NCBI GenBank assembly: GCA_964016885.1
Contig: OZ024744.1
Coordinates: 73,656,001-73,720,000, forward strand
Direction: 5' to 3'
Length of the DNA: 64,000 nucleotides
Source of the DNA: Eledone cirrhosa
Lineage: Eukaryota
Shown here: in pieces, positions 46,095 to 50,203 of the stretch
Numbering within the stretch: the first letter of the stretch is position 1
Layout of the letters: each line of letters begins with the position of its first letter
Translations under genes and position numbers: made by a program
Notes under the pieces: generated by a model
The model's database searches: none
Told to the model about the DNA's origin: nothing
The model's input: only the letters and a program-made list of their open reading frames with translations

Positions 46095-46101
<7 letters not shown>

Positions 46102-49100
46102 GACGTAAAATAAGAAAATATTTTTTTAAAAAAATTAAAAAAAAATTTTTTTCTTACTTAAATTTTCACTCCAACTAATTAGTTTCTGCAATGGGATAAA
46201 GACAGTTACGTAATCCAACTGTCGAGAATTCATTGCGTCATCAGGAAGTCTATTCTCAGTTAAGTCTCCAGGCAATGCGCGGACACTGGCGGCTCATATA
46301 AAAATAATAATAATTCGGTAGATCGAACAGCTTGCGAGGACTGGATTCTATGTACCGAAATTCTCACTGCTTCAAGTCAAATGGCCGATTCTAAAGAATC
46401 AATCACGTGACACAGAGGCTAGTTAGAAGGAATGGGATGGTAAGATGACTGACGCCTACTAACACCCCAAAAAAAAATTTTTTTAGAAGTGGTTTTGACA
46501 AGTTTGCTCGACAAATCAGTGATTTGGAGATAAATATAGATAATTTAATATATCAACTAACATAAGCGCACAGATGCACGCCCATGCCAGCAAATACACA
46601 GGTTATGTCATAGTACCTAGGTGGTTCAATGCAGGAGAATGCAGAACAATAATATAAAGGACGTAAAATAAGAAAATATTTTTTTAAAAAAATTTAAAAA
46701 AAATTTTTTTCTTACTTAAATTTTCACTCCAACTAATTAGTTTCTGCAATGGGATAAAGACAGTTACGTAATCCAACTGTCGAGAATTCATTGCGTCATC
46801 AGGAAGTCTATTCTCAGTTAAGTCTCCAGGCAATGCGCGGACACTGGCGGCTCATATAAAAATAATAATAATTCGGTAGATCGAACAGCTTGCGAGGACT
46901 GGATTCTATGTACCGAAATTCTCACTGCTTCAAGTCAAATGGCCGATTCTAAAGAATCAATCACGTGACACAGAGGCTAGTTAGAAGGAATGGGATGGTA
47001 AGATGACTGACGCCTACTAACACCCCAAAAAAAAATTTTTTTAGAAGTGGTTTTGACAAGTTTGCTCGACAAATCAGTGATTTGGAGATAAATATAGATA
47101 ATTTAATATATCAACTAACATAAGCGCACAGATGCACGCCCATGCCAGCAAATACACAGGTTATGTCATAGTACCTAGGTGGTTCAATGCAGGAGAATGC
47201 AGAACAATAATATAAAGGACGTAAAATAAGAAAATATTTTTTTAAAAAAATTAAAAAAAAATTTTTTTCTTACTTAAATTTTCACTCCAACTAATTAGTT
47301 TCTGCAATGGGATAAAGACAGTTACGTAATCCAACTGTCGAGAATTCATTGCGTCATCAGGAAGTCTATTCTCAGTTAAGTCTCCAGGCAATGCGCGGAC
47401 ACTGGCGGCTCATATAAAAATAATAATAATTCGGTAGATCGAACAGCTTGCGAGGACTGGATTCTATGTACCGAAATTCTCACTGCTTCAAGTCAAATGG
47501 CCGATTCTAAAGAATCAATCACGTGACACAGAGGCTAGTTAGAAGGAATGGGATGGTAAGATGACTGACGCCTACTAACACCCCAAAAAAAAAAATTTTT
47601 TTAGAAGTGGTTTTGACAAGTTTGCTCGACAAATCAGTGATTTGGAGATAAATATAGATAATTTAATATATCAACTAACATAAGCGCACAGATGCACGCC
47701 CATGCCAGCAAATACACAGGTTATGTCATAGTACCTAGGTGGTTCAATGCAGGAGAATGCAGAACAATAATATAAAGGACGTAAAATAAGAAAATATTTT
47801 TTTAAAAAAATTTAAAAAAAATTTTTTTCTTACTTAAATTTTCACTCCAACTAATTAGTTTCTGCAATGGGATAAAGACAGTTACGTAATCCAACTGTCG
47901 AGAATTCATTGCGTCATCAGGAAGTCTATTCTCAGTTAAGTCTCCAGACAATGCGCGGACACTGGCGGCTCATATAAAAATAATAATAATTCGGTAGATC
48001 GAACAGCTTGCGAGGACTGGATTCTATGTACCGAAATTCTCACTGCTTCAAGTCAAATGGCCGATTCTAAAGAATCAATCACGTGACACAGAGGCTAGTT
48101 AGAAGGAATGGGATGGTAAGATGACTGACGCCTACTAACACCCCAAAAAAAATTTTTTTAGAAGTGGTTTTGACAAGTTTGCTCGACAAATCAGTGATTT
48201 GGAGATAAATATAGATAATTTAATATATCAACTAACATAAGCGCACAGATGCACGCCCATGCCAGCAAATACACAGGTTATGTCATAGTACCTAGGTGGT
48301 TCAATGCAGGAGAATGCAGAACAATAATATAAAGGACGTAAAATAAGAAAATATTTTTTTAAAAAACCACCTAGGTACTATGAACCACCTAGGTACATTG
48401 AACCACCTAGGTACATTGAACCACCTAGGTACATTGAACCACCTAGGTACTATGACATAACCTGTGTATTTGCTGGCATGGGCGTGCATCTGTGCGCTTA
48501 TGTTAGTTGATATATTAAATTATCTATATTTATCTCCAAATCACTGATTTGTCGAGCAAACTTGTCAAAACCACTTCTAAAAAAATTTTTTTTTGGGGTG
48601 TTAGTAGGCGTCAGTCATCTTACCATCCCATTCCTTCTAACTAGCCTCTGTGTCACGTGATTGATTCTTTAGAATCGGCCATTTGACTTGAAGCAGTGAG
48701 AATTTCGGTACATAGAATCCAGTCCTCGCAAGCTGTTCGATCTACCGAATTATTATTATTTTTATATGAGCCGCCAGTGTCCGCGCATTGCCTGGAGACT
48801 TAACTGAGAATAGACTTCCTGATGACGCAATGAATTCTCGACAGTTGGATTACGTAACTGTCTTTATCCCATTGCAGAAACTAATTAGTTGGAGTGAAAA
48901 TTTAAGTAAGAAAAAAATTTATTTTAAATTTTTTTAAAAAAATATTTTCTTATTTTACGTCCTTTATATTATTGTTCTGCATTCTCCTGCATTGAACCAC
49001 CTAGGTACTATGACATAACCTGTGTATTTGCTGGCATGGGCGTGCATCTGTGCGCTTATGTTAGTTGATATATTAAATTATCTATATTTATCTCCAAATC

Positions 49101-50203
49101 ACTGATTTGTCGAGCAAACTTGTCAAAACCACTTCTAAAAAAATTTTTTTTTGGGGTGTTAGTAGGCGTCAGTCATCTTACCATCCCATTCCTTCTAACT
49201 AGCCTCTGTGTCACGTGATTGATTCTTTAGAATCGGCCATTTGACTTGAAGCAGTGAGAATTTCGGTACATAGAATCCAGTCCTCGCAAGCTGTTCGATC
49301 TACCGAATTATTATTATTTTTATATGAGCCGCCAGTGTCCGCGCATTGCCTGGAGACTTAACTGAGAATAGACTTCCTGATGACGCAATGAATTCTCGAC
49401 AGTTGGATTACGTAACTGTCTTTATCCCATTGCAGAAACTCTATTAGTTGGAGTGAAAATTTAAGTAAGAAAAAAATTTTTTTTAAATTTTTTTAAAAAA
49501 ATATTTTCTTATTTTACGTCCTTTATATTATTGTTCTGCATTCTCCTGCATTGAACCACCTAGGTACTATGACATAACCTGTGTATTTGCTGGCATGGGC
49601 GTGCATCTGTGCGCTTATGTTAGTTGATATATTAAATTATCTATATTTATCTCCAAATCACTGATTTGTCGAGCAAACTTGTCAAAACCACTTCTAAAAA
49701 AATTTTTTTTTTGGGGTGTTAGTAGGCGTCAGTCATCTTACCATCCCATTCCTTCTAACTAGCCTCTGTGTCACGTGATTGATTCTTTAGAATCGGCCAT
49801 TTGACTTGAAGCAGTGAGAATTTCGGTACATAGAATCCAGTCCTCGCAAGCTGTTCGATCTACCGAATTATTATTAGTTTTATATGAGCCGCCAGTGTCC
49901 GCGCATTGCCTGGAGACTTAACTGAGAATAGACTTCCTGATGACGCAATGAATTCTCGACAGTTGGATTACGTAACTGTCTTTATCCCATTGCAGAAACT
50001 AATTAGTTGGAGTGAAAATTTAAGTAAGAAAAACATTTTTTTTAAATTTTTTTAAAAAAATATTTTCTTATTTTACGTCCTTTATATTATTGTTCTGCAT
50101 TCTCCTGCATTGAACCACCTAGGTACTATGACATAACCTGTGTATTTGCTGGCATGGGCGTGCATCTGTGCGCTTATGTTAGTTGATATATTAAATTATC
50201 TAT
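46095..50203. repeat. Fold-back tandem array of a ~558-bp hammerhead-containing unit (4+ copies plus 3+ inverted copies), flanked by (TA)n
   Basis: Landmark ggacgtaaaat at 46101, 46659, 47217, 47777 and 48334. Inversion at ~48366-48450; the reverse complement continues to ~50203. Confidence 0.95.
48814..48895 (+). ncRNA. Type I hammerhead of the 558-bp unit; also 49372-49454 and 49932-50013 (plus), 46168-46249, 46726-46807, 47284-47365 and 47844-47925 (minus)
   Basis: acttc-CTGATGA-c-gcaatg..gacagtt(loop)aactgtc..cattgc-a-GAAA-ctaattag-TT-ggagt, with the helix III palindrome AACTAATTAGTT. Confidence 0.85.

Follow-up and report, generated by a model that had tools for sequence, protein, structure and literature searches.

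Non-LTR retrozymes (those without long terminal repeats, LTRs), the RNA circles they give rise to, and the proposal that Penelope-like elements (PLEs) copy them into tandem complementary DNA (cDNA) were set out by Cervera and de la Pena (2020, PMC7229834). Li, Clavereau and Pollet (2026, bioRxiv 10.64898/2026.07.22.740005) have tied retrozymes to the pseudo-LTRs (pLTRs) of PLEs, with units of 51–972 bp. The subject of this study is an inverted array of 558-bp units, each with a putative hammerhead ribozyme, at positions 46094–50205 of a 64,000-nucleotide stretch of Eledone cirrhosa DNA (assembly GCA_964016885.1, contig OZ024744.1), a stretch that I will call the window. The array is probably, and I say so with moderate confidence, a young two-armed insertion of a non-LTR retrozyme, in which a PLE likely acted in trans, priming reverse transcription (RT; also used here for the transcriptase) from both ends of a (TA)n target on one RNA, itself likely a circle. 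It is interesting mainly as a testable record of the mechanism of PLEs.

The hammerheads of PLEs are of type I, with a short helix I, an enlarged helix II, a palindromic helix III, an extra base between positions 9 and 10.1, and the pair G10.1-C11.1 (Cervera and de la Pena 2014, PMC4209133). Insertions of endonuclease-bearing (EN+) PLEs show partial tandems and an inverted, 5'-truncated, head-to-head copy, often have a tail of 30–40 bp at one end, and prefer (TA)n (Craig et al. 2021, PMC8557442; Arkhipova et al. 2013, PMC3846280), by a mechanism termed "still undefined" (PMC8557442). For PAc, a Poseidon element of the green anole studied in vitro, both strands of an AT-rich target are cut and extended; the protein is a predicted dimer, and RT begins at two internal sites that bound the tail, with no difference in start site from strand to strand. 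The RNA was linear and unprocessed (Frangieh et al. 2024, PMC11167929).

Layout of the Array

The assembly of the window is that of an animal (3.0 Gb) and is rich in microsatellites. Two (TA)n runs enclose a left arm of 4.07 units (558 bp each) and, facing it, a right arm of about 3.18 units, with identities of 99.3–99.6% among units, much as a preliminary description had it (at least four nearly identical units facing at least three inverted ones, with TA flanks). Unit positions are numbered from the predicted ribozyme cut. The outer (sense 3') end of the left arm is then at position 79 and its inner (5') end at position 40, and the outer (sense 3') end of the right arm is at position 197. 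The parts of the array are as follows.

46054..46098, no strand: (TA)n target run, left end
46094..48366, hammerhead sense on the minus strand: left arm, 4.07 units of about 558 bp (2273 bp)
48365..48450, plus strand: junction, an 18-bp segment of the unit in 4.8 copies
48432..50205, hammerhead sense on the plus strand: right arm, about 3.18 units
50088..50205, plus strand: 118-nt "tail", unit positions 80–197, carried by the right end only
50186..50227, no strand: (TA)n target run, right end

The tail contains a long predicted hairpin. Any target-site duplication at the locus is hidden inside (TA)n. The array had been called a 4.1-kb palindrome: inverted it is, but lopsided, for when 48432–50209 is matched to 48306–46530, some 435 bp in the left arm and some 125 bp at the centre have no mirror in that register. 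The stutter at the junction has the look of a template copied over and over by an RT related to telomerase, but repair by templated end joining would leave a similar trace, and it may be either. Of four sequencing runs whose contigs were compared with part of one unit and the junction, one covers the stutter at low depth, though no listed piece spans the stretch; that run possibly comes from the source sample and is not used as support, and single low-depth contigs from two other organisms are too thin to use. Among six runs, none of RNA was listed as containing the sequence, which bears on expression in neither direction.

The longest stop-to-stop frames are 52–55 codons within units and 72 across the junction, consistent with the lack of coding capacity noted earlier, and a frame scan of the 558-bp unit found no frame with RT plus GIY-YIG, such as an autonomous PLE would have. 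The element is non-autonomous. Its GC content, 0.35–0.37 in the array, lies below the 45% that bounds retrozymes. Directly left of the array, across (TA)n, is a decayed 3' fragment of a PLE (45060–46050) with GIY-YIG (a weak Pfam match, E 0.015); it is an older, independent insertion whose sequence is unrelated to the 558-bp unit.

Two Fixed Ends in a Dispersed Young Family

The array is no lone satellite: in a genome-wide search, a 32-nt core word of the unit has 811 exact copies, dispersed over many chromosomes. I fetched 74 loci, consisting of the 39 best-scoring (from 40 scored of 422 candidates) and 35 taken in position order. Arms in this sample reach 15 units. Every one of the 113 young 3' ends falls at unit position 79 or 197 or close by (107 of them exactly) and nearly all are fused to (AT)n, while the 5' ends are scattered. 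Since only two of the unit's five TA runs are used as ends and the others, one of them longer, are hardly used, a match to TA alone does not pick the end sites. Genome-wide, the two patterns of end plus TA have 302 and 558 exact matches.

Two-armed loci make up 41 of the 74 (and 19 of the 36 in the position-ordered set of the largest contig), and every inverted locus is joined 5'-to-5'. With one locus of an older subfamily (L084) removed, 40 young two-armed loci remain. In 39 of these the ends are mixed, 79 being the end of one arm and 197 that of its partner (P ~4e-11 against 50:50). On the largest contig, opposed end pairs within 15 kb of each other were mixed in 30 cases out of 30, of which 15 are new and 15 overlap the fetched set.

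No junction is repeated among the 40 loci, and their flanks are not mirrored. The two arms meet flush or with an overlap of 1–5 nt in 28 of the 40, the remaining junctions having short inserts. The offsets of the 5' ends extend over the full unit, 21 falling in one half of it and 19 in the second, and the longer arm can be that of either site (that of site 79 in 14 of 40). Around the ribozyme cut, in positions 540–20, lie 13 of 112 5' ends (P 0.049), an accumulation that is not relied on, the interval having been chosen after looking.

The family thus has a head-to-head, 5'-truncated inverted copy, two 3' ends that bound a one-sided tail, and a (TA)n target, all of PLE type. The fixed 3' ends, scattered 5' ends and single strand polarity together suggest target-primed RT of hammerhead-sense RNA. 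The arrays are very young, since single-unit changes amount to only 2.7e-4 per base. In seven loci (L013, L045, L056, L057, L073, L080 and L085) the T and A tracts of the unit are lengthened (up to ~40 bases), differently from unit to unit, likely by slippage at each RT pass.

A Probable Single Template per Locus

Substitutions were counted outside homopolymers in 73 loci, after seven arm pieces of older subfamilies and pieces shorter than 100 nt had been dropped. Among the 92 substitutions covered by at least two units (20 more are covered by one unit only), 44 are fixed locus-wide, 6 are partial, and 42 occur in a single unit. Nine fixed substitutions are private to one of the 73 loci, and one of these spans 15 units.

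The two arms share a haplotype in 14 of 15 informative cells, as compared to 6% for shuffled pairs (none of 5000 shuffles reached 14/15); the single discordant cell is in L082. Two unit types alternate in both arms of L042, and both outer ends begin in the same type. In L037, one variant occupies the third unit of each arm, counted from the outer end. Substitutions shared between arms number three when counted from the outer ends and none in junction register. The combination of one site per end and one haplotype suggests that both ends prime on one molecule, and the fixed private variants, along with the dimer periodicity, suggest repeated passes round a monomer or multimer circle. Ribozyme junctions between units are exact in 295 of 298 cases; template jumping between linear monomers, which was also considered, is disfavoured by these exact junctions and by the few mixed haplotypes.

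The Predicted Hammerhead Ribozyme

All seven hammerheads mentioned in the preliminary description were found, each of seven units having a CTGATGA core (at 46244, 46802, 47360 and 47920 on the minus strand and at 48819, 49377 and 49937 on the plus strand). The copies are listed with the evidence for each.

48814..48895, plus strand: type I hammerhead (sequence, covariation, co-fold)
49372..49454, plus strand: hammerhead copy, helix III palindrome damaged (sequence, co-fold)
49932..50013, plus strand: hammerhead copy (sequence)
46168..46249, minus strand: hammerhead copy (sequence)
46726..46807, minus strand: hammerhead copy (sequence)
47284..47365, minus strand: hammerhead copy (sequence)
47844..47925, minus strand: hammerhead copy (sequence)

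In the copy at 48814–48895, a helix I of 5 bp (48814–48818 with 48891–48895) is followed by the core CUGAUGA (48819–48825), a two-part helix II of 53 nt with an internal loop, GAAA (48877–48880), and a 12-nt palindromic helix III (48879–48890) with a GUU triplet and a predicted cut after 48890. The extended helix II had been remarked upon, but not the extra C before it or the extra A after it, both of which are left free by the search pattern and occur in 31 of 31 distinct sequences. The 12-nt palindromic helix III with GUU, also claimed earlier, is intact in six of the seven copies and damaged in the one at 49377.

The assignment as a hammerhead is one of structure. The proposed scan with the Rfam hammerhead families gave 0 matches at gathering score in the window and none at E ≤ 10 on one unit. 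Over 21 distinct sequences picked from the 31, representing several diverged subfamilies, the structure is 95% paired, as compared to 35–48% in slid controls, and nine base pairs in helices I and II change on both sides. The core and helix III were set by the search pattern, and their constancy is therefore no evidence. Two copies are predicted to co-fold into a dimeric hammerhead that shares a 12-bp helix III (−48.4 versus 2 × −19.4 kcal/mol).

A relaxed hammerhead pattern matches the genome 9,015 times, and the matches fall into several diverged subfamilies. Among them are older subfamilies with extended helix II (L099–L125), 75–90% identical in the tail region. These are likewise two-armed, with ends near 79 and 197–204, and some have (TC)n at the distal end.

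The Same Rule in Other Elements of the Genome

The preliminary description held that two unrelated families share this architecture, the other being a hammerhead family of 311-bp units. Both parts of that claim stand. The best blastn match between the 558-bp and 311-bp units has an E value of 0.87, that is, no similarity; the 311-bp family (1,144 exact cores genome-wide) is two-armed, ends at 129–140 and 166–173, and is mixed in 8 of 8 fully readable two-armed loci, one further locus with an unreadable end having been left out. The copy in the window (1597–3316) is two-armed, with ends at unit positions 171 and 131.

A coding PLE of the genome (881-aa frame; RVT_1 E 9e-8, GIY-YIG E 2e-4) has two ends in (TA)n, separated by about 40 nt. 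Among the 45 loci examined, both ends were read in 12, and in all 12 they are mixed, 7 of these having been selected for the presence of the distal end. An abundant TA-targeting PLE, found with the GIY-YIG fragment that neighbours the array (L146–L151, frames up to 923 aa), has the insertion geometry of the 558-bp family. By search pattern there is no standard hammerhead in the ends of this PLE, and no pLTR homology of the 558-bp unit was found with the one PLE family compared (26 loci).

Other parts of the window may be noted here. A short pair of minimal-hammerhead repeats, arranged head to head, lies between (TA)n runs at 25603–25849, with a tail of about 65 nt at the right end only, and has relatives at 4657, 6565 and 53333/53375. 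Adjoining (TA)n at 26856–27283 is a perfect 214-bp inverted repeat without spacer and with a central CTGAAGA motif, a candidate for a true fold-back junction. The region 10269–14740, in which 479-bp inverted arms with minimal hammerheads (10353 and 14656) stand 3.5 kb apart on either side of a 700-codon stop-free frame, is probably a two-armed PLE insertion. A stop-free frame of 1141 codons on the minus strand (40094–43516) reads like a non-LTR retrotransposon.

How the Arrays May Have Formed

The proposed course of events begins with transcription of a tandem array, in which adjacent hammerheads would pair by way of their palindromic helix III and cleave after GUU, the resulting monomers and some multimers then being ligated into circles. 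A PLE protein dimer would cut both strands of (TA)n, as PLE biochemistry suggests (PMC11167929). One end would prime on the RNA at 79 and the other on the same RNA at 197, which may be what lies behind the pattern observed in the genome, and the 118 nt between the two sites would constitute the PLE "tail". Each RT would circle the template several times, so that all units would carry the template's variants. The two cDNAs would finally be joined 5'-to-5' at variable points, mostly with 0–5 nt of overlap as seen at the junctions, to give an inverted array; extension of only one end would give a single-armed array. In its fullest form, double rolling-circle target-primed RT, a PLE dimer docks both (TA)n ends on the paired sites of one ribozyme-made circle and two RTs chase each other round it. 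I would give that form an even chance of being right.

A number of observations weigh against priming of both ends by a PLE on one circle. PLE insertion in vitro used unprocessed RNA, and hammerhead cleavage was dispensable (PMC11167929); in Xenopus, 8 of 9 predicted retrozyme dimers failed to cleave (bioRxiv 10.64898/2026.07.22.740005). The predicted minimum-energy fold of the monomer is not a hammerhead, and the predicted circular fold breaks the hammerhead. The tail is 118 nt, as against the usual 30–40 for PLEs. Arms matched unit by unit from their outer ends gave no significant agreement in register (P 0.14–0.16, 9 loci), and the order of units is irregular in L033 and L041, as also in L025. 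A cell whose RNA came mostly from one donor would likewise yield arms with the same haplotype. Near-palindromic junctions (offset within 10 nt) occur in 6 of 40 loci, above chance (P 0.004); they are compatible with snap-back in some cases, or with one RT having caught up with its partner. Finally, kinship with a partner PLE was not found: the family with the 923-aa frame (26 loci) shares no sequence with the unit.

The main rival keeps twin priming by a PLE at the paired sites but supposes a linear, uncleaved multimer as template, with local slippage, unequal exchange and conversion homogenising and lengthening the arrays and the ribozyme playing a minor part in insertion. I consider it unlikely. 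It explains the pairing of sites and the shared haplotypes equally well, it accords with the unprocessed RNA used by PAc and with the insertion of hammerhead mutants (PMC11167929), the L037 variant in the third unit of both arms counts in its favour, and the irregular orders in L033, L041 and L025 do indicate some local rearrangement. What it handles poorly are the nine fixed, locus-private substitutions (one over 15 units) and the mere 6 partial substitutions beside 44 fixed ones, since in arrays this young such a record implies passage through one unit at or shortly before insertion. In L042 the two unit types alternate strictly along each arm, in agreement with a dimer circle, and compensatory change across subfamilies keeps the structure of the ribozyme. 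One might instead imagine an asymmetric PLE dimer with two separate RNA molecules, one for each site, which I find improbable. PAc is a predicted dimer that extends both strands (PMC11167929), an RNA pool from one donor would give matching arms, and one of the 15 cells (L082) is discordant; but 14 cells are concordant, where shuffled pairs give 6%, both ends of L042 begin in the same unit type of a dimer, and the common start site of PAc on both strands (PMC11167929) makes an intrinsic asymmetry not evident.

Fold-back or self-priming, in which one cDNA folds and is copied back into the inverted arm, was proposed for palindromic junctions of PLEs (PMC3846280) and is implied in the preliminary description, where the arrays were given a fold-back architecture. 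As a general route it is disfavoured, and I think it a shade less probable again than separate RNAs. The near-palindromic junctions, and the haplotypes shared between arms, suit it, and it may account for a minority of loci. However, the 5'-end offsets cover the whole unit, either arm may be the longer, no substitution is mirrored about the junction (0, versus 3 from the outer ends), and folding gives no reason why arms should end at different fixed sites in 39 of 40 loci. Least probable by my reckoning, and very much so, is an origin at the level of DNA, whether as a transposon of the Foldback type, as plain satellite DNA, or as a chimera of reads or assembly. Long inverted arms of tandem units do resemble Foldback elements. 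Yet the matching terminal inverted repeats and fixed internal structure of such elements were not found over the 40 loci, the two ends differing in sequence (79 versus 197), the polarity is always 5'-to-5' with fixed 3' ends, and a coding PLE has the same geometry. The unrepeated junctions, mixed ends and unmirrored flanks speak strongly against a chimera, a danger raised in the preliminary description, and equally against a transposon that ends in inverted repeats or a palindromic master copy of fixed form.

If double rolling-circle RT from both target ends is the true account, then one reaction would explain the tandem copies, head-to-head inversion and one-sided tail of PLEs in general. That a circle serves as template in the retrozyme life cycle has so far been proposed (PMC7229834, PMC4209133). 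A non-coding family that is short, very young and inserted hundreds of times offers rules that can be counted: a single start site at each DNA end, a single haplotype in each locus, and the periodicity of dimers. These would tie retrozymes to PLE enzymes by mechanism, beyond co-occurrence, and they are testable in the existing in vitro PLE assay.

Comparison with Known Systems

Much of what is seen here has been published, namely retrozymes and their link to PLEs, unit sizes reaching 972 bp, PLE copies in inverted orientation, and a tail at one end only. The system as such is not new, nor is the size of the unit. The preliminary description saw in the two families a general system of ribozyme-processed RNA parasites of PLEs, and a non-coding ribozyme element with a PLE insertion footprint is indeed what the loci present, but such a system is already on record (PMC7229834; bioRxiv 10.64898/2026.07.22.740005). 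It also took the unit to be longer than known retrozymes, whereas 558 bp, though above the 170–400 nt of PMC7229834, lies inside the preprint's 51–972 bp. A search of the literature (most subscription papers and the preprint supplements lay outside it) found no description of strict site pairing, one-template haplotype evidence, two-armed retrozyme arrays or a 118-nt tail. In particular, two-armed inverted arrays with paired (TA)n ends were not found in the available text of PMC7229834 (where "inverted" and "microsatellite" occur 0 times) or in the main text of the preprint.

The 558-bp family resembles animal non-LTR retrozymes in its non-coding tandem units with one type I hammerhead each, its GC below 45%, its dispersal as dimers to multimers, and the co-occurrence of PLEs. 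Published retrozymes have been shown to form circles and to cleave; in this family both are predicted. It does not belong with the LTR retrozymes of plants, which have a type III hammerhead in LTRs with a 4-bp duplication; the topology here is type I, and there are no LTRs. Luense et al. (2017) reportedly treat PLE hammerhead variants and may describe a two-part helix II, the extra A and a GUU triplet. Measured against the PLE hammerheads of PMC4209133, the ribozyme of the unit agrees in being of type I with a short helix I, a large helix II, an extra base at 9/10.1, G10.1-C11.1 and a palindromic helix III, and differs in its two-part helix II (53 nt, with internal loop), its GUU, and an extra A before GAAA, of which no mention was found in the available text of that paper.

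Like insertions of EN+ PLEs, the arrays have partial tandems, an inverted, 5'-truncated, head-to-head copy, a one-sided tail and a (TA)n target; unlike them, they lack an RT-endonuclease frame, have many whole units per arm, and carry a tail of 118 nt, not 30–40 (PMC8557442, PMC3846280). With PAc in vitro (PMC11167929) they share two start sites that bound the tail, an AT-rich target, and extension of both ends, but the genomic record adds a near-strict pairing of one site to each end, with short TA matches at both sites. The data from the 558-bp family favour twin priming over the self-priming proposed for PLEs in 2013 (PMC3846280).

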